IMG/VR virus record: IMGVR_UViG_3300042275_000518
Span: 1 to 64,000 of that record
Source of the DNA: a virus
Taxonomy: Duplodnaviria; Caudoviricetes
Direction: 5' to 3' (one strand)
Length of the DNA stretch: 64,000 nucleotides
Shown here one piece after another: positions 41,864 through 63,578 of the stretch. A model generated the notes under the pieces. That model saw only the letters and a list, made by a program, of their open reading frames with translations. It was not told the origin of the DNA and ran no database searches. The translations under genes and the position numbers were made by a program. The first letter of the stretch is position 1; every line of letters begins with the position of its first letter.

Positions 41864-44800
41864 TTATTGTAATTTAGCCCATAATTTTAAATCTTCTGAT
41901 GCTTTTTTGTTTAATTCAGTTAACCTGACTATTCTTTCAGGCCACCAATTTGTTTTGTCATCACTATTTTGAATATAGTCCAATATATCTACATCCACTT
42001 TGCACTTCACTAATAGATAGTCTGCTATTGAGAATATCTCTCCAGTGCTTGTGTTAAATGATATAATATCAAAGATATTAATATCTTCTTTTACTATTTT
42101 ATCAGCTATTTGTTTCCTGGTCCAACTGAATCTAGGTCTATCAGTATTACGATAGTGAAATCTTATATTATACGAATCTTTATATTCGAGAAAGTCTGTG
42201 AAACTTCTCAAATGCCCATAAAAACTTGAAGGCTTGGCTCTCAATAGTTTTAATATTTCTTCTTTATAATATTGATAGTTATCCATTATTCAAGATCCCC
42301 GTTATTAAGTTTATATAATAGAATGATAGCATCATCATCCATCCCATTTACAACATCTTGCTTGATATATTTTGAAGTTAGTGCTTTATGGTCACCTGTT
42401 AAAAATTTAACAAGTGCCTTTTGACCTTTATGTTGTATGATAGCGTAGTCGCTATATTTCTTCTTTCTATTTTTCAACAATTCGTCATCGGTGCTTTGTC
42501 GTATAAGTCTCAATTTTTTATCTGCATAATATCCAGTTTTTAACTCATATTTTCTAGACTTAAAATAAAACTCAACTTCGATAAATCTATAATTTCTTTC
42601 AAACGATAGTCTATTTCCCCATCTTTTGTCTGTTTCAACAATACGTATATTGTCGTAAAAAGATGTCTTACTGAATAGATACTCTAATGTGCTTTTCTTA
42701 GCCGTCTTTTCGTCACTAGAATTTAAAACTTCAAAGTAGTGATTTTTAATCTCATCTGAAAAGAATATCTCATTAATTTCTTCATGAAACAGTTTTCGTT
42801 CTTTTGGTGTAAACTCATTTTTATTTGCCATACTTAACCTCCTCTATTTTATAATATATTTTCATTTTATTATTTATAGAGTTTCATCAATAATTTTAAC
42901 TCTTCATTTCCCTTTTTTCGTAGGTCTAATCCTTTGAAGCGGATACGCTCTCTATCTTGACTACCCCGTCTTAGATAATAATAATTGAAAGCTTTATAGA
43001 AACTATCATAATTCTCTAATATATAGCCTAAATCCAATTCAAAATTAACTGCCATCATTTTAAGTAGAGATAACTTTTCAAACTCAGTGTCGTCACTAAG
43101 TCCCTCGTCATCATATCTTTGCACACGCTCTTTTATTTTCTCTATAATGAAACTATCCTTAGAATCTACTTGTCGTTTTATGACTTGATAAAATTGCAAA
43201 GAGTCAATCTTGTTTGCAATAGCCAGCTCAGTCAATTTATGAATGAAACTTGTTTCTAAATCTTTTCTGTTAAAGACATAAGTTCCAAGTTCACTGAAAA
43301 GAGCCGCTCCCTTATACTTATAAATATTTACTTCGCCGCTATATTTATAATAACTTATTGACATATCTTTGTTATAGTTTTTAATAGATTCTTTTAATAA
43401 GTTTTCTATAAAACCTAGCGATAACTCTTCTAGATTGTTTTTTACTACTTTTAACAGGTCTAGGTGTTCCCTGTATTTCTTGATAAATTCTTCTGAGAGC
43501 TTCTTATTAGAAACCTTGTGCCAGAAATTTTTATCTATATTCTCCTCAAATATATTGAGAAATTTTTTCTCTATCTTCATTATTTGCCACCTATATATTT
43601 TATAAGGAGTTTCGCTTCCACAGGTGTGCTTTGCATTCTGCCACCTTCTCTGTCTCCTGCTGACACTGAGATACCTTGTGATGCAGCTGACATTTGAACA
43701 TCTAAAACTGAACCACCTTCATTTTCAAGCTTATTCAGAAAAGAATCTAGTTCATACTCACTAATAATTTTATATTTTATTTGCCCTGACAGATTATTTA
43801 AATTAGCATACAGAAGAATTTCTTCTATAAGTTCTATCTGCCCTTGACTATGAAGAGAACCTTCATTTTCAAGTTCTTCTTTCTTCATCTGCAGGTACTT
43901 TACTAAGTTCATTTTTTCGCGTTTTTCCTTTCTATGTTGTTGTATTCGTATCCTTTTAATACTAAAAATAATTTAACTGATTCATCTAGATTTTCCTCAG
44001 TTGCCCAAGGATTGAGTTCTAAATTTATAACAGAAAGGGGATTGAATCTCTCAACGAGTTTCAATCCCTTATTAACCCTCATATAATTATTAAAACCCTC
44101 ATGCATTCTGAGACATGCATCTTCAATAGCTTCAAAGTTCTCTATGAAGTACTCAGGAGTTATAGATGTTTTGGTTATATCATCATAATAATCTCTGAAA
44201 TCTTTCATTTAGAACTCTTCTTCACTATAAAATTCTTCTTTTACTTCATCTGTTAAATTTTCTTTTGAAATTGATATAACCAGATTTCCTTCTTTGTCTA
44301 TCTTGGTTAACTGTCTTGAATTTTGTCCAAATGGCTCATCATCGTCATTCCAGTCTAAATGAAAATGCTCAGTTGTTTCATCTTCATAATAAAAGGTTAC
44401 TTGAGTTAAATCTTGGAAATTTAATACTCTGTCCTTTACAAATAAGTCTTTGTTATCTTCATAAATATCAAACTCAGTCTTAGCATTTTCTAGATATTTA
44501 CTAGAAATAACAAAATTAGCGTTTTCTGCATGAATGAATGTTTGCATTCTTGAATCAAAATTCATAAATTTTTCTGTACTGAAACCTCCCGCTGATACTA
44601 ACAAAACATACTCAGCTGGTACCGTGAAACCGTCACAGTTTTCTAATGCAAAATCTATTTTTACTAATCTTTTATACATGTTCTCCTCCTAAATATCTTT
44701 CCAGATGATGTCTATTTCTTCAATAGTTTCATGAATAAACATCTCTATATCATACTTTGCCTCTTCCATTGTGTCAAAAGCATAATCTTTGACAGCCTCT

Positions 44801-45535: not shown

Positions 45536-45753
45536 AATTTCCTCCTTTTTTAAAAGAAGACAACTCTTAATTGAGTTATCTTTATTTTTTACTGAAATGA
45601 ACTGACCTTGAAAGTCACTATATCGTTTATTTGCATATTCATTAAACCATAAAATGGCGTCTTTGTCATTTTCATCTTATTTATTCCCCTTCTTGTATTT
45701 TATATAAATTTTAATTATTTTCAAATTAAAGACCCAGATTTCTCTGGGTCATT

Positions 45754-46626
45754 TTATTTCTCAAACAAAGGCACTACCTTAATATCGTTTAATTTCAATA
45801 GCAGCGCAATAGTTTCGTTCTTCATTTCTATTTCCAAAAAGTCACAGTCCTTCATTCTCTCATTCATTCTCAGATAATGAAAATTTATCTTGAAAAGATT
45901 TTGTATAAAGAACTCTTCTGAAAACTCTTGATACTTTGATATATTATCCCACATATTCGACTTAAAACTCCCAGAATTTATAATAATATTTAACATATCC
46001 TCTGTAAGTTGTTTGCTAGTCAATATATAAGCTAAATCTAATTTATTAGAGAACTCTTTTAAAAGTTCCTCAGTAATTTCATTATTTTCGACATAAAATC
46101 TAGTAAATGATTGCCAATTAATTTTGTTAGAATATTTCCTTGCAAAGTCAAGCGTTATTATTTCTTTTTGCATGTCATAACTCCGATAACTATGAGGAAT
46201 AATTCGCCAGTTTAGATAATCTTCATACTTCTCAATTAAGTCAACTGTTATATTTTTTAATCCTATATAATCTCTGCCTTTTAAGAAGGATATTACATCA
46301 TTTTTCTTAAACAATTTTTCAAGTTGCTCACCTGTTAAAAGAATATTAAATATAGTATATAGTCCAATCTTTTTACGATTTTCAACTATGAAATCAAATT
46401 CCTTATTGAAAAATTGTTCGCCTTCATATGAACTAAAGAAACTGCTCCAATGTATGTGTTCCGCAATTTTCTTAATTTCACTGACAGGAAGCATTCCTAC
46501 TTTCCATGAAAGACTATAAAAGTCAAATCTATGTGGATACTTCAATATTAAATCCGCTCCATATTTAGGAGAAGATGTAAGACCTTTCAAACTAAGCAGT
46601 CTCTCTTCATTGTATTCTATTTTCAT
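45754..46626 (-). CDS. Tryptophan-repeat family protein
   Basis: Periodic I/L-x-W units with helical spacers (HIHWSSF, YLNWRII, KINWQSF, MWDNISKYQEFSEEF). Confidence 0.6.
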   Translation of the reverse strand: MKIEYNEERLLSLKGLTSSPKYGADLILKYPHRFDFYSLSWKVGMLPVSEIKKIAEHIHWSSFFSSYEGEQFFNKEFDFIVENRKKIGLYTIFNILLTGEQLEKLFKKNDVISFLKGRDYIGLKNITVDLIEKYEDYLNWRIIPHSYRSYDMQKEIITLDFARKYSNKINWQSFTRFYVENNEITEELLKEFSNKLDLAYILTSKQLTEDMLNIIINSGSFKSNMWDNISKYQEFSEEFFIQNLFKINFHYLRMNERMKDCDFLEIEMKNETIALLLKLNDIKVVPLFEK

Positions 46627-46627
46627 A

Positions 46628-49600
46628 TTATATACCCCCTGTTTGAAGATATTTATCTATCTTTTTCTTAATAGTACCGTACGTATTCTGTACGTTATGT
46701 CTAAATATAATCTTGTCATCTTGCTCATCATAAATATAATACTCAGACTTTTTTCCAAATACTTTTCCAGAAACGGGGCGGTCATTATGAAACACACCAT
46801 ACCAAAATCTCTTCTTGTGTATTAAATTCATAATATGTGCATTGACTGCCATATATGCTCTTAAATCTGACATTGCCATAATTTCTCTCCTTAATTTAGT
46901 ATCATGTATAAATCAATTGCATCATCATCCATATCATTAAATATACTAAAATCATTAATTCCAAACAATTTAGCATATATTGGGTCAGTTGAATAAACAC
47001 AAAAGCGTTGAATATCAGTTGGGTTCAATAAACCTCTTTGATATGCTCTAATCAGCGATTTATAGTCAGACAAAGCTTCAAGAATAGCAGCATAACTTCT
47101 GTTTTCCCTGAAACTTTGTATAATTTGTTCATCGCTATATTTTTTATACTTTTTAACCATACAAAACTTCTCCAAATAACGCATACTGAATAATCATATC
47201 ATGGTCAGCAGCATCCCAGTCGTCTGGGTCTAAGCTAATCGAATTATTATCCAATGCTAATTGAATTCCCTTTTTAATATCCTCTTTATATAATACTCTC
47301 ACATCGTCTTCATCAGTAATTTTTAGCCAGTCTCCTCTTTCGAGTAATTCGGTCAGTACTTCTTCAAATGCTGGGTCTTCTAATGATTCTTTGACTTCGA
47401 TATATCTATCTGCGTGCCAATCTAAAAGTTCAACCCAATATCCAGAATAGGAATAAAATCCTGACAAAATGCTTACTAAATCTTCTTTTGTAACTTCTGT
47501 TACTTCTGCTTTAAATTTCATAATTTCCTCCTAATTAAATCTCATCCATAACTCAAATGCTTCATCATCCATATCCATAAATACTTGTGGATATGATATA
47601 AATAGCTCACTAGTCATAGGTGCAAAACTACAATTTCTGAGATTATCTGCAGCAAATTTCATCATTTCACCTTGTACAGCAGTACTCATTTGAATAAAAT
47701 TTCTTCTTTTCTCTCGCTCAACAGACATAATAACTTGATTGTTATCTATATCTATTGCATAGTTGTATTTGTATTCTAAACCACTACGTTCAACTAGTGA
47801 TTTAACTCGTTCTAATAGTTTTTCTAAATCCATATATCCTCCTTAGAAATTTAACTTGAACCACAACAATGCGGCTTCATCGTCTTCAAATTCAGCTATA
47901 ATATCTAATACAAACTATACTCATAGCCAGCATCTCTTAGTCGACTCCACATAATATCTAATTCAACTTCTTTTTCGTTAACAAAGAATTTGTCATTTTC
48001 GATATCATATTTATGAACATAACTGTTTTTATAATCAGAACTATAAGTTGTTATAGAGTTATCATGAATTCTGAAAAAATCAACTAATCTTTTCTTTTTT
48101 CGTTCATATTCTTTCTGTTTTTCTTTTCGTTCTTCTAATATAAAAATCCCGTCTTCTAAACTTTCGAAATATTCATCATTTATAATAATTCCATTTTTAA
48201 CTTTTTGGATATTGTACTCTTCTAATAATCCCATGCCAGCTTTTAATAGATATTCTTTTACATATCTCTTAGAATCAGAAGAATGAATATTCAATTTATC
48301 TATTTCAGGCATTTCAATATATACATCATGTTCTCTCCAACGACCGTTATCGATTTCAATATAAAAATAGAAGTCTTTTCCATGTTCAACCAAAAATGAA
48401 AGAACGTTATTTTCGGAAAACTTCATTTCATAATATATACCATTCTTTTCAGCTGTTTCTATAACTCCTTCGAAATAGCCGTTAATAATCATTTGAACCG
48501 TTTCAACATCTTGTTTCAAAAGATTATTCAGAGCTAATAGGGAAAATAAATTCTCAAAATCGGTTTCTTCAATATTAGAAATTTTGTAAGTTCTGTCACT
48601 TTGTTCTTCTATTCTACAAATTATATATTTTGACCTCGTATAGTAAAAACCATTAGTTTCACTTATAATATATAACTCATTACTTCTCATAGAATTTGTT
48701 ATAGTTCCTCGTTTACAAGAGCAATATTCTAATAGTTTGCCTATTTTTAATTCGCTTTCTCGTTCTTCTGTTATATGGTATAATTTACCATATTCGTTTC
48801 TTGTCATTCTTTCACCTTCTTAATTTCCATAATTTAGTTTAAACCATAAATCAAATGCTTCATCATCCATATACATAGTCTGAACAAATTCAGCAGGTAA
48901 ATATCCTTCAAATAAATCTTTATTAAAAATTATAGTTTCAGCAAGTATGTCTATGAATATGTCATCTTCATAACTCATAAACATTGAAAAGCCTTCACCA
49001 TCTTTGTAATACTCATGATGTGATGAAAATAACGTAGAAAATCTCTCGCTAATAAAATAATGAAGATCTAGATAGTCTATTTTCATTCCTTTAACATCTG
49101 AATAGGGGAATATTGATATTCGTTCATTATCCATCTCAACGTCTACAGTAATATCTGGTAGACTCTTTCTTTCTAGAAACACATCCATTATTTTATAACT
49201 TAGTCGCACAACATGTTCTATTACCATTTTTTCTGTTATTATTCCCATATTACCCTCCATAATTCAATTTAAACCACAATAAAGCATCTTCATCGTCGTT
49301 AAATTCTTTTATTTCTTTCTTTAAATCTTCGGCAAATAAGAATGCCATATATTCCTTTTCTTCTATATCTTCATCATCTTTATAAATATATTTATCGATG
49401 GAAACTGAGTAAAAACCCATTGATGATAACACTGCATCATATCCGTTCTTGTCCATTTTAACTCTCACAAGATTTCTACCTCGTTTATCATCATAAATGA
49501 TTGTAAAATATTTTGGCACTGTTATTGCCTCCTTCCTAATAGTTCAATTTAAACCATAATAATGCAGTTTCATCATCTGGAAATTTTATTGTTTCTACGA

Positions 49601-51006
49601 AAATTGTACTTATTGTTGCTTCCCCATGCATTAAAGAGAGAGTGCTACAATTTTTTCCAGTTGGTATTACTTTATAAAGGCTATAACTTTTAGAAGAATT
49701 ATTATCAATATTTTCTCCTACTCGATATATATTCATATATTCCTCCCTAATAGTTCAATTTAAACCATAGTATTGCATCTTCATCATCTTCAAATTCTAT
49801 TAATTTATCTTCACATTCTGATTCGAATATCAAGCCTACAAAATAAGGATCATCGGTAGAATCTGATTTCCACTTCCAAGAAATAGAATCTTCATTTCTT
49901 GTTTTGCGAATTTTTATAGGAATGTCTTTTTTAGGTACATTCGCTATTAAAAATTTTTTAAGTCTTATTAATTTATTGTCATCATCGATTTCTAGTATAT
50001 CTTGGTCTATTGCAAATAGAATGAAATAATCTCCAAGTTCATCACTAAAATGTCCTACATAATAAGTTTGCATATTTCCTCCTTAGAATCTTAATTTAAA
50101 CCATAATTCAAAAGCTTCGTCATCCATATCAATAGTATTATGAAATAAAAATTTCTTAAAATTTGCAGCCTCTTGATACAGATTTCTCATAATATTAACA
50201 CTAATATTTCGTATAAATCCGTTCGTAAATTCAACTTTTATCAGTTCACCATATACGTTATTTATGTATTCTTCTACTTTTTCAAAATCTATTTCTAAAA
50301 AATCATAATTTGTTGTAAGTATAGCTCTAACATACTTCTCATTGAAAGAATATCTCACTTCTAAATTTTTAGATAGTGCATCATCATATTTAAATATCAA
50401 TTTAAATATTCGCTCAACATGATTCTTTATTTTCTCATCTTTTGGTCTCATATTATCAACTCTTTCTTAATAAAGTAAGAGGGAGAAATTCTCCCTCTTT
50501 TAATTTAGTTATTCTTCTTTAATCTTTTGTAAATCATTCATCATCTTAAAAATAGCTGTTGCTTCCCAAAGTTCTAATCCAAGTCTATGTTTTATATTAA
50601 GTTCAGAGCGTGAATCCCAGATGATTTCTTCATCATCAAAGAGTGCTTCTCCTTTTTCAATTTCTTCCAAAGTATCCTCATAAAATTTGATTAGTTCATC
50701 TGTTTCTAATGGCATACATGCTCTTCCACATCGATATTGAATCGGATAGTCTGAGAATTCCTTAATTCTTGCATGATTTAAAAGTTCTTCTAATCTTACA
50801 ATAACCCATTTATATTCTTTGAAAATCTGCCTCCAATTATTTTGATGTAAAACGATTTTTCCATAAGAGTTATTTTTAAGTGCTTCATGTTCAAAGTCTT
50901 TATATTCTTTGTCATTCCATGAAGTTCCATGACCATGAATTGCCTCATATTCTTTTCTTACTTCTGATTCACTTCTACCTTTATAATATTCTACTGTTAT
51001 AGACAT
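46628..51006 (-). CDS. Cluster of eleven hypothetical early proteins (46628-46879, 46891-47160, 47153-47521, 47531-47833, 47905-48807, 48820-49248, 49250-49519, 49536-49736, 49747-50073, 50083-50451, 50509-51006)
   Basis: Abutting ORFs with GGAGG RBSs; most end in the shared DDE..LWFKLN(Y/F) peptide. Confidence 0.7.
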
Positions 51007-52061
51007 TATATCTTCTCAGGCACCTCTCTTTTCTTAAATTTCACATCTTTAAGTTTCTCAACTGAGTCTGCCATAATAATACAACCATGGCCAATCAAGT
51101 TGATAACTTCAAAATCTGTTTTCCAATTTCCAATGACAGACAGAATTTCCTGAACTTCTTCTAATCCACCACATGGCACGTTATTTTCTGTATAAGTTGC
51201 AGTTTCTGCATATACATGAGCGTGGACCATATAGTTGATATTTGGAAGTGCCTGATAAAGTCTTAATTGAATTGGTGTATCGACAGATGGCTTGTTATCG
51301 GAATAATACACAATATGGCCATCATCTGTTATTTTAGTTGGCACGAAACCTTCGGGTCTAATGTATCTTTTGTCAATATTTCTTTGAGAAACATAGACTA
51401 AGCCATTGTGACGAAAGCTTGGAAAACCTTTTGAGCATCTGAAAGAACTATTTCCTAAGAAGCGAGTGGTTGGCGCTGGGTTCACTAATTCATGGAAGAC
51501 CTCAGCTGTTCCCTTAACATAATCAAAGAACTCTTCTTCATTTGGAACTTCATATCTTTCTTTTCCTTGTATAGTTCCCTGACGAGATACTTTTGAAAGG
51601 AAGCTTGCTCTTTTCATTAGAACCTGAACCATTTCTGCAATGTCAGTTCCTTTATAATAATAATTTGCGAGTGGATCGAATATCATCATTTCATAAGGCT
51701 TCTCTAATGTATTGAATTCTATTGTAAGATTTGCCTTTAAATCCAAAGCGTGTTTAACTAGCTCCATGAAACTGTATCGTCCATTATTGACTTTTGAAGT
51801 TATAAATATACAACGTGGGTTATAGAATTTGATGTCACGATATTTTTCTTCTTCATTACCTACATTAGGAAACCACATAACGACGTCATAATCCACAGTT
51901 TCTTCGATATAGTTTTCTAGCTCATCAAATTGACCGCCATTGTGCATATCTACTTTATCTATTTCTTCACTTTTAATAATTTCCTCATACATTTTTGTAA
52001 TAAGACTTGATGGTTTCCCACCGTCTCTACTGTATGTTCCACCTACCAATAATATTCTCAT
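51006..52061 (-). CDS. Protein with C-terminal class II aldolase/adducin-like domain
   Basis: GNSSFRC, KPSVDTPIQLRLY, YMVHAHVY, LIGHGCII. Confidence 0.65.
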   Translation of the reverse strand: MRILLVGGTYSRDGGKPSSLITKMYEEIIKSEEIDKVDMHNGGQFDELENYIEETVDYDVVMWFPNVGNEEEKYRDIKFYNPRCIFITSKVNNGRYSFMELVKHALDLKANLTIEFNTLEKPYEMMIFDPLANYYYKGTDIAEMVQVLMKRASFLSKVSRQGTIQGKERYEVPNEEEFFDYVKGTAEVFHELVNPAPTTRFLGNSSFRCSKGFPSFRHNGLVYVSQRNIDKRYIRPEGFVPTKITDDGHIVYYSDNKPSVDTPIQLRLYQALPNINYMVHAHVYAETATYTENNVPCGGLEEVQEILSVIGNWKTDFEVINLIGHGCIIMADSVEKLKDVKFKKREVPEKI

Positions 52062-52825
52062 TAAAGTTCTCCTTTGTCTTTCTGATATTGTTTCAAGTCT
52101 CTATATGCAATAGAGGTTCTGTTAAATATTTCCCTTGGTACTTTTTTAATATGTTTTTCTACTACCTCAATTAATTCATCGTAATTTTTATAAGTTCTAG
52201 AAATAATAATATTTGCATACTCTATGAAAGACTCTCTCTCCATTGAAAGAAGTTTCTTGTACTCTGGCGGAGTTATTGTAATAGAATGGTCTAAATAAAT
52301 ATAAGTTGACTCGAGTAAACTATGATTATCTATTGATAAATTTACTTTTAGTCTATACGATAAATCGTATCTATTCATAAACTCATAATGTTCCAAACTA
52401 ACTTCAAACCATATGCTGTCAATTGTAAGCCTTTCGTTATAATTAGGGCTCTCATATTTCTTATATAAATCTCTTATACTAATAGAGACAGACCTAGTTA
52501 AAATTTCGCTTGCTCTATAAGGAATATCTAGTATAGGAATTTTATATTCTTGCAATTTGAAGAACAGTTCCGTTTCTTCCTTCATATTAGTTAGCCAATC
52601 TTGATTTAGTAGAAGATTTCTTAAAAAATCTTTATTAGATGTCTTGCTAAATAATTCAATAAACTCTTCTTCGTTTAATCTAATATTTTTTAATAGTTTG
52701 CTATAATCCTCCCCTGTACTTTCCAAATAGGGAACATAATCAAGTAATTCATCAATTGTAGGAAAATTGTTTCTAAAATATTTTTCCCAATCTACTATAT
52801 TATAATATGCTTTGTCAATCTTCAT
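52061..52825 (-). CDS. Hypothetical protein
   Basis: 254 aa; internal EETELFFKLQ copy of the tag. Confidence 0.55.
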   Translation of the reverse strand: MKIDKAYYNIVDWEKYFRNNFPTIDELLDYVPYLESTGEDYSKLLKNIRLNEEEFIELFSKTSNKDFLRNLLLNQDWLTNMKEETELFFKLQEYKIPILDIPYRASEILTRSVSISIRDLYKKYESPNYNERLTIDSIWFEVSLEHYEFMNRYDLSYRLKVNLSIDNHSLLESTYIYLDHSITITPPEYKKLLSMERESFIEYANIIISRTYKNYDELIEVVEKHIKKVPREIFNRTSIAYRDLKQYQKDKGEL

Positions 52826-57434: not shown

Positions 57435-57695
57435 CTACTGTTCTTCTTCAATATTTTCTTCTGTGTTTTTATTTTTATCCTGTAATATAGCCAAAAGAAT
57501 AAATATTGGCCATCCAATAGCAAATAATACTAGTGCTTTCTTAATAGCCGTTTCTGACATCATTCTTGGTGAGACATCTAACTTCTCCCTGATTTCTTCA
57601 TCATTTAGTGCTTTCCAAATAGTTAATGATATCAAAGCCCCAATCGTTAAATAAATAATTCCAATAATAATTAAAACTTGTTGTGTTGCATCCAT
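57435..57695 (-). CDS. Two-TM membrane protein
   Basis: Two hydrophobic helices (YLTIG, GWPIF); early promoter at 57741-57749. Confidence 0.65.
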   Translation of the reverse strand: MDATQQVLIIIGIIYLTIGALISLTIWKALNDEEIREKLDVSPRMMSETAIKKALVLFAIGWPIFILLAILQDKNKNTEENIEEEQ

Positions 57696-58430: not shown

Positions 58431-58919
58431 TTAAAAATTCAATTTAAACCACAATTCAAAATCCTCATCGTCCATGTCAATTGTTTGATAGAATAACGGA
58501 AATCTGTTTTTCATGGTTTCATAAGACATTGGGTCTCTGTATATTGATAAATCTAGTATAACAAAGTTGTCTTCTTCTACATTCATTATCAAGGATCTAA
58601 ACCTTTCATTTAAGGTTCTAATAGCATGTTTTGTAAGTCTTAAAGTTCCATCGTTGATGATTATTTTAAACTTATGACCATTATATATATTGCTAACTTC
58701 TATTTTGCTATTATCTCCTATAACGTTTTTAAGAGCCGCAATATAAACACGTTTTAGGTGAGATTTTATATCTAGGCTTCTTATTTCTTGTCGGATTTTT
58801 TCCATTTCTTTTTCAAAGTCATTATGAACTTTGTGAAGTTCTTGAAGGAAATTGACATCATTTTCACAGTATTGAGATAACACTGGTTCAACTATTTTTT
58901 CCTTTTTAAATGGCCACAT
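58431..58919 (-). CDS. Hypothetical protein with C-terminal MDDEDFELWFKLNF tag
   Basis: 162 aa, GGAGG RBS. Confidence 0.65.
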   Translation of the reverse strand: MWPFKKEKIVEPVLSQYCENDVNFLQELHKVHNDFEKEMEKIRQEIRSLDIKSHLKRVYIAALKNVIGDNSKIEVSNIYNGHKFKIIINDGTLRLTKHAIRTLNERFRSLIMNVEEDNFVILDLSIYRDPMSYETMKNRFPLFYQTIDMDDEDFELWFKLNF

Positions 58920-58962
58920 ATAATTCCTCCCTTAAAATAAAGAGAACCCTAAGGTTCTCTTA

Positions 58963-62571: not shown

Positions 62572-62985
62572 TTAATAATTTAATAGTAAAAATAATTTAA
62601 TTTCTTCGCTTTGTAAGTTTTCATTATTTTTAATAATACTAATAAGTTTTTTTAAGTAACTTGGAAAAGAAATAAATGGGGATAATATAGCAGATATAAC
62701 ACCAACATTAATAATCTTTTCAGAACCAAACCTAAGCAAATAAAAAATTAATGGAACTTCTAATAACTCAACGGGACTTACATGTACCTCTAAAACTCTG
62801 TTTAATTCGCCATCCAAAAGGAAAAACCAATCTTTATTTGAAATAGTCGTTCTATTAGTAAGCATTTTTTCTGAAATTTTGTGAGTAGAAGTAGCTTCAG
62901 GAAAAGTTTCATATATTAATTCTTTTAATTTTTTCTTATCAATGTCATCTATCTTTATATTTTTTAATACTTCATAAAAATCCAT
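62572..62985 (-). CDS. Hypothetical protein with degenerate C-terminal tag (SEEIKLFLLLNY)
   Basis: 137 aa, AGGAGG RBS. Confidence 0.6.
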   Translation of the reverse strand: MDFYEVLKNIKIDDIDKKKLKELIYETFPEATSTHKISEKMLTNRTTISNKDWFFLLDGELNRVLEVHVSPVELLEVPLIFYLLRFGSEKIINVGVISAILSPFISFPSYLKKLISIIKNNENLQSEEIKLFLLLNY

Positions 62986-63003
62986 ATAATTTCCTCCTTA
63001 TAA

Positions 63004-63578
63004 AACAAAAAAGATAGTATCCGAAGATACTATTTTTCATAAGTTTACCCCCTTACTTCTTTAAGAAGTTTTTCAGATTCTTTAATTTTCTTTTTCAAAT
63101 GTTCTATTCGTTTTTTAGAATCCGTAATATATCCTTCCAAATTCTCTTCTAAAGACTGTGCCAGGTCTTCAAATTTTATATATTGTACTTTATTTTCTAA
63201 TAACCAATGACCATAATATATAAAATACTCTTTATCAAAATCTGGAATTAAAAATCCGCAACCAAACATTTGATAATCAACAACATAAAAAGTTCCTTCA
63301 GAATCTATAAATGATTTACAATAATCAATCTCACCTTTTGACAGTCCATAACTTTTAGTTAATTTTTCTTTAGCAAGTTCCTGAGCCTGACTTAAAAAAT
63401 CATCGTCATTAATATCTCCATAATCTTCTATTAATTCTAAGTTTTTTATAGGTAATGAGGCTCCTTTAACATTCTTATGAAGGACCATAGGCACCTTAAT
63501 TAATTTTACTATCTTTTCGTAACTATCCATCTTATTTTCTCCTTCAATAACAAAAAAGATAGTATCCGAAGATACTAT
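63004..63578. repeat. 30-bp direct repeat (terminator hairpin) flanking 63045-63530
   Basis: AACAAAAAAGATAGTATCCGAAGATACTAT at 63004-63033 and 63549-63578. Confidence 0.9.
63045..63530 (-). CDS. Hypothetical protein
   Basis: 161 aa, flanked by duplicated terminators. Confidence 0.6.
   Translation of the reverse strand: MDSYEKIVKLIKVPMVLHKNVKGASLPIKNLELIEDYGDINDDDFLSQAQELAKEKLTKSYGLSKGEIDYCKSFIDSEGTFYVVDYQMFGCGFLIPDFDKEYFIYYGHWLLENKVQYIKFEDLAQSLEENLEGYITDSKKRIEHLKKKIKESEKLLKEVRG

Follow-up and report, generated by a model that had tools for sequence, protein, structure and literature searches.

The window analyzed here covers positions 1 to 64,000 of an IMG/VR virus record of 189,901 bp (IMGVR_UViG_3300042275_000518; ~30% G+C, completeness estimate of 74%), which we take to belong to an AR9-like jumbo phage. 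Small proteins encoded on its minus strand end in a common helical motif, here called the tail or tag, and the rest of each protein is called the body. A sequence-only reading of the window had described this shared terminus of about 15 residues, and all nine of the termini that it quoted are present, at the ends of minus-strand open reading frames (ORFs) of 66 to 181 amino acids (aa). Genes are named by their lower coordinates in the record (for example, 49747 and 93946), and the F, M, and R families are carrier groups named by body. The nine strong carriers are listed below with their scores in profile hidden Markov model (HMM) searches, where i-E is the independent E value.

49747..50073, minus strand: F-family gene encoding the modeled protein, 108 aa; tail FEDDEDAILWFKLNY; external body-only HMM E value of 2e-8
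49536..49736, minus strand: short F-type gene, 66 aa; tail FPDDETALLWFKLNY; tail HMM i-E of 8e-10; N-terminal MNIYRV
49250..49519, minus strand: F-family gene, 89 aa; tail FNDDEDALLWFKLNYGG; tail HMM i-E of 9e-9; body HMM E value of 0.03
48820..49260, minus strand: M-family gene, 146 aa; tail YMDDEAFDLWFKLNYGN; external tail-less M-body HMM E value of 6e-4, second of 740 ORFs
50083..50451, minus strand: M-family gene, 122 aa; tail DMDDEAFELWFKLRF; external M-body HMM E value of 1e-5, top of 740 ORFs
47531..47833, minus strand: gene with an M-type tail, 100 aa; tail DMDDEAFELWMRFN; tail HMM i-E of 4e-10
46891..47184, minus strand: singleton-body gene, 97 aa; tail DMDDDAIDLYMILN; tail HMM i-E of 6e-8
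58431..58919, minus strand: gene with an M-type tail, 162 aa; tail DMDDEDFELWFKLNF; tail HMM i-E of 3e-9
42286..42831, minus strand: tagged gene, 181 aa; tail GMDDDAIILLYKLNNGDLE; tail HMM i-E of 3e-8

The motif is real and occurs well above chance. Run on every ORF of 40 aa or longer in the whole record (740 in total), the tail HMM found 22 with an i-E below 0.003, all on the minus strand, in which the motif ends 0 to 5 aa before the stop codon (10 aa in one case); about 10 weaker C-terminal matches lie below these, and the best score for reversed sequences was 0.18. In the set used for C-terminal counts, the 294 non-overlapping genes of the record, a loose regular expression ended within 12 residues of the C terminus in 28; the 50,749 internal positions gave 3 matches, and shuffled proteins averaged 0.19. 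A pattern-free, all-versus-all comparison of the last 16 residues gave 199 high-scoring pairs, and 36 genes had three or more partners, whereas the controls yielded 16 pairs and no such gene (internal segments), 23 pairs and none (N termini), and 37 pairs and two genes (C termini of an unrelated 218-kb phage). Some 30 to 36 genes (~12%, or about one in eight) carry the helix, always at the C terminus. The carrier proteins have a median length of 115 aa, and their charge gives no signal (median isoelectric point of 5.0 versus 5.3 for other small proteins). Their ORFs end in TAA or TAG, with one weak case excepted, and the ribosome-binding site (RBS) of the next gene follows.

At identical tail residues, codon identity is 0.61, versus 0.50 expected from codon usage. 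Since synonymous sites are this close to expectation, selection acts on the peptide and not on the DNA, as had been proposed from synonymous differences between copies; the tail is under purifying selection at the peptide level. Codon identity gives no support for recent homogenization or gene conversion of the tails.

Weaker versions of the tag had also been pointed out. The four genes listed next fit the C-terminal class, but no tail motif was detected in 43909 by the tail HMM, and the internal site in 52061 was insignificant (i-E of 19).

45754..46626, minus strand: R-family helical-repeat gene, 290 aa; weak tail MKNETIALLLKLND, 10 aa before the stop codon; tail HMM i-E of 4e-6
42870..43580, minus strand: weak-tail gene, 236 aa; GNEELKLLMKLYK; tail HMM i-E of 4e-5; fits the loose C-terminal pattern
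41864..42286, minus strand: weak-tail gene, 140 aa; ASEDLKLWAKLQ; loose C-terminal pattern; tail HMM i-E of 1.4, not significant
62572..62985, minus strand: weak-tail gene, 137 aa; SEEIKLFLLLNY; loose C-terminal pattern; no tail HMM match

Body families behind the tail

The sequence-only reading saw no similarity among carriers beyond the tail. According to our profiles, however, 49250, 49536, and 49747 form one family, being homologous over the whole domain and sharing an N-terminal MxxYxV hairpin, and 48820 and 50083 form a second. Within the genome alone, BLAST and leave-one-out HMMs of tail-less bodies gave almost no links among members; the homology of the F and M bodies is seen only when external sequences are included. 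Proteins from outside the record carry P numbers (P0004, P0009, P0023, P0031, and others). Related metagenome contigs are designated L029, L032, L035, L037, and L040/41; G000 is the record itself, and G001 to G003 are other IMG/VR records.

An F-body HMM was built from external F-type bodies only, with the tails and the four preceding residues removed, and run on the 740 ORFs, the in-genome members also being tail-less. Its top matches were 93946 (E value of 5.5e-15), 49747 (2e-8), 82353 (5e-8), 138679 (2e-7), 139058 (5e-3), and 49250 (0.03). The body of 49536 is too short for this HMM (E value of 3.5), and 49250 is the sister of external P0023 in the body tree (support of 99/83). The N-terminal MxxYxV strand, a pattern chosen post hoc, is found in 9 of the 10 F-type genes versus 10 of 284 others. 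In a 36-sequence alignment, the family is characterized by this N-terminal hairpin, a central W-x-W hairpin, and a C-terminal hhEF-x-DDE-x-A-x-LWFKLNY. By sequence, the F family appears to be a new group; it is the largest one, with 10 genes and two decayed remnants.

The corresponding HMM from three external M-type bodies placed 50083 (1e-5) and 48820 (6e-4) as its top two matches, and jackhmmer linked 48820 to L035 and P0009. Gene 58431 is a probable M-family member: in full-length BLASTP it is 46% identical to the M protein L035_4988 over 59 aa (E value of 6e-10), and body-only tests against M gave E values of 0.07 and 0.45. The body of 47531 is orthologous to that of external P0031 (E value of 1e-7), which has the same tail, and L035_7165, the body ortholog of 42286, likewise has a matching tail. 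Body-only jackhmmer searches further grouped 45754, 79750, and 114492 with external members into a helical-repeat family (R), all with weak tail versions at the end, some of them degenerate in external members. The same searches recovered a small family (140198, 139769, and L032_7542) and a pair (139428 and L032_8669), while about 12 carriers remained singletons, including 46891, for which no body relative was found.

The carriers thus fall into at least five body families (F, M, R, and two small ones) plus singletons. The F-body HMM did not match the M bodies (E value of >4), and when full-length M and F profiles were aligned with hhalign, only 15 columns were paired, from DDE to LNY (probability of 94.6%, E value of 7e-8). 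Because this alignment is limited to the helix columns, the helix is the sole element common across families. A single divergent paralog family, which the sequence-only reading had named as the outcome that would undo its proposal, is therefore not what the profiles recover, although several multi-copy paralog families are. In no body family did we find members that lack the helix beside members that have it; every significant F- or M-body match carries it, in what is a small sample.

The helical-repeat proteins have a feature of their own. Members encoded at 45754-46626, 42870-43580, and 52061-52825, and elsewhere in G000 at 79750-80313 and 114492-115097, contain repeats of about 25 aa of the form [LM]-S-E-[ED]-F-[IM]-x-x-Y-x-x-x-[LI]-[DN]-W. 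In these proteins, the weak tag has the appearance of an additional repeat's opening helix and, with a one-residue gap, the repeat LSEEFIxKYxDKLDW resembles the strong tag MDDEAFELWFKLNY. The internal repeats are not scored by the tail HMM. Such a repeat could be the origin of the tag helix.

Model of the F domain and anatomy of the helix

With the nine in-genome paralogs as input, AlphaFold2 was confident for the N-terminal hairpin and the C-terminal strand-helix only. With the 36 F sequences, 49747 was modeled as a compact domain with a mean predicted local distance difference test (pLDDT) score of 92.4 and a predicted template modeling (pTM) score of 0.83. Its strands span residues 2-11, 14-28, 33-44, 53-57, 64-68, 80-84, and 90-94, and the tag forms a helix at residues 97-107 (pLDDT of 98), two residues past the last strand. 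In the F family, the tag is thus predicted to be an integral element of a compact domain and not a tethered peptide; placement on a flexible tail or linker is contradicted by the model, in which strand 90-94 runs into the helix. Carriers outside the F family have only short N/G/P loops ahead of the helix.

The F domain is confidently modeled and seems to be new, with no known relative. Foldseek searches of PDB and BFVD gave no convincing fold match (best E value of 0.57), with PH, EVH1, and RanBD domains at E values of 1.2 to 2. The best VIA-align match (wide and second-look modes), a weak one, was the Tubby C-terminal domain (1i7e; Z score of 4.6 over 61 residues, root mean square deviation of 2.8), and all others scored below 3.9. 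Feature searches of the ESM Atlas were uninformative. No match at the family cutoff was found in Pfam, PRANC included, for 20 window or genome proteins and the 36 F sequences. The strongest PHROG match (E value of 7e-4) involved one member only, and a sequence profile search of PDB returned no hits. For the M family, the ESM Atlas model of 50083 (pTM of 0.48) resembles an alpha/beta sandwich over residues 1 to 100. This is a lead that the M body may differ from the F body in fold type. The nearest neighbors of this low-confidence model over the same residues are histidine-kinase HATPase_c-like alpha/beta sandwiches (TM scores of 0.5 to 0.58).

Aligned position by position, the F-type and M-type tails bear out the two subtypes distinguished by the sequence-only reading. 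The 48 F-type tails read E(-2) F(-1) [E/P/N](0) D1 D2 E3 [S/T/A]4 A5 [L/I]6 L7 W8 [F/Y]9 [K/R]10 [L/M]11 N12 Y13 (G14), with A5 in all 48, and the 16 M-type and allied tails read [D/E](-1) M(0) D1 D2 E3 x4 F5 [E/K/D]6 L7 [W/L]8 x9 K10 L11 [N/R/Q]12. Positions -1, 0, 5, and 6 are family specific (F, E/P, A, and L/I in the F family versus D/E, M, F, and a charged residue in the M family) and so would fit packing on differing bodies. D1, D2, E3, L7, W8, K10, L11, and N12 are universal, and five of these are polar. The conserved hydrophobic residues lie on two stripes, A5/F9/Y13 and L7/W8/L11.

Distribution and turnover of tagged genes

Among 1.84 billion representative proteins, 33 matched a tail profile of 30 positions (E value of ≤1e-3), about 22 of them from other samples, and every match ended within two residues of the C terminus. 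A profile search with the 36-sequence F alignment added few members. A peptide-pattern scan of other IMG/VR contigs found no motif; a DNA pattern for DDExxxLWFKL gave one chance antisense match there, in a T4-like contig; and tblastn of 49747 against isolated phages returned noise only. When the C-terminal 40 aa of 49747 were used in a word-indexed search, only 49747 itself was returned, from a collection of 5.8e9 sequences where tail-only scores cannot reach significance. From these searches, the motif appears to be confined to this phage and its close metagenomic relatives. G001 to G003, which were located through the 351-aa protein described below and lack the motif, had been considered as tag-less relatives, but G001, the largest of the three, shares only three ORFs with this phage, and the absence of tags there is therefore uninformative.

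The contigs with tails are AT rich (26 to 30% G+C) and carry them in tandem arrays; in L037 (Ga0066599_100005334, 1-3271), seven tandem tag genes fill almost the whole 3.3 kb. L029 and L035 share synteny with the window and are 56 to 74% identical to it in a 351-aa aldolase-like protein, topoisomerase I, NAD ligase, and a 300-aa ORF, and in both contigs F- and M-type genes sit at variable positions between these core genes. Three proteins from other samples, P0004, P0005, and P0020, are near-identical strain variants of 47531, 138679, and 152403; P0005 lacks seven internal residues relative to 138679, and P0004 has conservative changes in its tail (E to D and M to I). The 351-aa Aldolase_II-like protein (51006-52061) is 72% identical in L029 and 37 to 38% identical in three IMG/VR phage records. 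Since G001 (218 kb), the largest of these, shares only three ORFs with this phage, the gene appears to move between unrelated jumbo phages.

Bodies have diverged to ~20% identity, and tails are ~65% identical. Tail identity is higher within contigs (0.685) than between them (0.636; permutation P value of 0.03), whereas bodies show no difference (P value of 0.21). Met11 is present in all five L037 F-type tails compared, and the other L037 tails also read M-N-Y or K-M-Q; all seven tag genes of L037 have Met in place of Leu at helix position 11. Asn10 is present in all three L040/41 tails, and all three tails of Ga0172378_10002623 have Asn at position 10. These patterns hint at concerted evolution of the tails. 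The star-shaped body tree is uninformative both about concerted evolution and about a lineage-specific burst of paralogs.

Besides intact genes, the window contains two tails without a body.

47846..47896, minus strand: orphan F-type tail and stop codon without a gene body; AEFEDDEAALLWFKLNF; profile E value of 9e-9; open frame of 23 codons
45635..45676, minus strand: decayed tail remnant; DENDKDAILWFNEY; in the intergenic gap after 45754-46626

The former comprises 17 intact codons that immediately follow the 300-aa ORF 47905-48807, in the -1 frame. The L029 ortholog of this ORF is full length (56% identity) and ends untagged at the same residue; hence the orphan tail is the remnant of a truncated F gene, and a programmed -1 frameshift that would tag the 300-aa protein is ruled out. 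The latter starts right after a stop codon, has no start codon, and is tied by a DNA repeat family to the tails at 47856 and 49760. Such repeat families cover tails over 56 to 61 nucleotides (nt) at 60 to 87% identity. Together with the differing number and position of tag genes in syntenic relatives, the two remnants show rapid gain and loss of these genes. This gives limited support to the idea that the DNA repeat and adjacent RBS drive cassette shuffling.

The AR9 early-promoter motif is AAATATATATTAT-N6-G (PMC5312081). Motifs of this type lie 27 to 45 nt upstream of 42286, 140585, and 153690. Within the window, close matches on the minus strand (TATATTAT-N6-G/A, in an A/T-rich context) occur at 42858 and 57749, directly upstream of 42286-42831 (by 27 nt) and 57435-57695. 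Both the AR9-type early motif and AACA-N6-TA are enriched three- to fourfold in the intergenic DNA of the record. For the carriers as a whole, the nearest promoter motif is of the early type in 14 genes and of the late type in 20, many at kilobase distances, and timing is mixed. Terminator-like G+C-rich hairpins with T runs are found at 50452-50508, 58920-58962, and 62986-63044, immediately upstream of the RBSs of 50083, 58431, and 62572, and at 45700-45753, after 45754. These hairpins suggest a long codirectional gene block punctuated by terminators.

Possible roles of the helix and comparison with known systems

The explanation that we favor, to which we give slightly less than an even chance, is that of an integral capping helix with two faces. 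The tag would be an N-capped, often Gly-capped amphipathic alpha-helix, D-D-E-x-[A/F]-x-L-W-F-K-L-N-Y(-G), forming the last structural element of several expanded small-protein families in this phage and its close uncultured relatives. Its family-specific face would pack against the body of the same protein, and its universal face (D1 D2 E3, L7 W8, and K10 L11 N12) would make one common protein-protein contact, either with a single phage or host partner or between paralogs. The families could then be diversified sets of small binders in which the loops vary, the scaffold is fixed, and the connector is shared, and whose genes turn over rapidly between conserved core genes, as accessory host-interaction genes do. 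We favor a common contact because polar surface positions are rarely invariant for folding alone, because tails are ~65% identical while bodies are at ~20%, and because tails, and not bodies, are more alike within contigs.

Several of our results weigh against this explanation. No partner was identified. The body-only HMM backs just 5 to 6 of the 10 F-type genes, the others being placed by tail subtype and N-terminal motif; the signal of concerted evolution is marginal, and the body tree is a star without resolved branches. A confident model exists for the F family only, and the M body rests on the low-confidence ESM model. The conserved hydrophobic residues span about two-thirds of the helix circumference, so the helix may be a buried core helix, in which case a shared partner would be unneeded. 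A purely structural role of this kind, with the helix as a core or capping element that is conserved for the needs of the folds alone and was inherited from an ancestral C-terminal strand-helix unit or spread by 3'-end recombination in tandem arrays, is a serious alternative, although we consider it rather unlikely. It agrees with the helix being a high-confidence part of the F domain, with the two hydrophobic stripes, and with the failure to find a body family without the helix; the best structural match, weak as it is, is a Tubby-like barrel that encloses its C-terminal helix, M and F genes adjoin in arrays, and 3'-end rearrangement is seen in the orphan tails. Yet D1, D2, E3, K10, and N12, polar and presumably exposed, are near invariant across families of differing folds, the tails are far more conserved than the bodies, and all-beta and alpha/beta folds are not expected to need an identical 13-mer.

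The sequence-only reading had proposed a modular adaptor, a docking helix that addresses a diverse effector set to one receptor. A peptide common to nonhomologous bodies and the conserved D1/D2/E3/K10/N12 still fit a common interface. The notion of a label appended to unrelated effectors fares worse, given the paralog families, the helix within the F fold, and the lack of an identified receptor, and the adaptor reading as proposed is weakened. As a portable address label (a docking helix, degron, capsid-loading signal, or compartment signal), the tag would bring diverse effectors to one receptor, which we judge improbable. The same 13- to 15-mer does recur across five or more unrelated body families as well as many singletons, strictly at the C terminus and under peptide-level selection, and the diverse T4 internal proteins that share a short targeting sequence provide a precedent (PMC3012670). 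In the F family, however, the helix lies within the fold with no linker, and in other carriers merely short loops precede it; its distance of 0 to 10 aa from the C terminus argues against recognition of a free carboxyl group; and in the record, at its 74% completeness, no phage ClpP, AAA+ unfoldase above the cutoff, or tubulin was found. Several carriers also lie directly behind AR9-type early-promoter motifs (PMC5312081), a poor fit to virion loading. A true modular connector, in which at least five unrelated folds (~12% of the proteome) acquired the same C-terminal helix to plug into one hub, seems unlikely to us as well, though less so than a mere label; the hub would be a host machine, a phage scaffold, or a mixed oligomer of the carriers themselves, and the integrated helix would coevolve within each genome. 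Finally, the conserved gene end might act at the level of nucleic acid or the nascent chain, as a recombination anchor, in translational coupling, or as a termination-modulating peptide. The tails do adjoin the RBS of the next gene, orphan tails are kept directly upstream of an RBS, and DNA repeat families of 56 to 61 nt cover the tails, but with near-random synonymous sites (0.61 versus 0.50), a spacing to the stop codon of 0 to 10 codons, and the same RBS arrangement in untagged genes, we hold this to be highly improbable.

Jumbo phages have hundreds of small orphan genes whose organization is obscure, and here about one-eighth of the genes are grouped by one structural element. If the helix is a common interface, as we favor, a single pull-down could place about 30 orphan proteins at a cellular destination, and the system would illustrate the way in which a phage can diversify its binders while keeping the connector fixed. 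Even a helix with a structural role only would make AR9-like phages a clean case of families that expand within one lineage and of genes that turn over rapidly, leaving tail-only remnants.

Literature searches did not find a description of the motif, yet several known systems resemble parts of it. With a predicted seven strands followed by a C-terminal helix with an invariant Trp, the F domain recalls Tubby- and PH-like domains, Tubby being its top structural match; the match is weak (Z score of 4.6, Foldseek E value of ≥0.57), Tubby has 12 strands, and no sequence relationship was found. In hub-binding tails such as SSB-Ct (DDDIPF) and the T4 clamp-binding tails, a C-terminal acidic stretch likewise precedes aromatic or hydrophobic residues. 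These tails are attached by flexible linkers and extend to the very last residue of the protein, but the helix described here is capped at both ends, directly follows a beta-strand, and may be followed by up to 10 residues.

The T-even internal proteins are a diverse set sharing only a capsid targeting sequence (CTS) (PMC3012670). As with the tag, a short conserved peptide is the sole common feature of diverse small phage proteins, and the set turns over quickly. The CTS, however, is an unstructured N-terminal peptide of ~10 aa that the prohead protease removes by cleavage after Glu, whereas our motif is exclusively C terminal, helical, retained, within the fold of the largest family, and also found on probable early genes. 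Bacillus phage G, with ~35 zinc-ribbon copies, exemplifies lineage-specific expansion of a small domain in a jumbo phage (PMC7824862). Such expansions likewise involve one lineage with many divergent paralogs of tiny domains, but here at least five families unrelated in sequence share one terminal helix in place of one copied domain. The feature described here is real and lineage specific: new small-protein families, one of them with a new and confidently modeled domain, have a single segment in common, the C-terminal helix, which is under strong selection.

In poxviruses, the F-box-like PRANC domain, of three helices and ~50 aa, is carried on ankyrin-repeat proteins and binds eukaryotic Skp1. 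This is also a viral multigene family with variable binding bodies and a conserved C-terminal helical element for one hub, although PRANC has a single body type and no Pfam match to it was obtained here. Were the helix a true connector, this phage would possess an "adaptor plus variable binder" system comparable to the poxvirus PRANC proteins or the T4 CTS.

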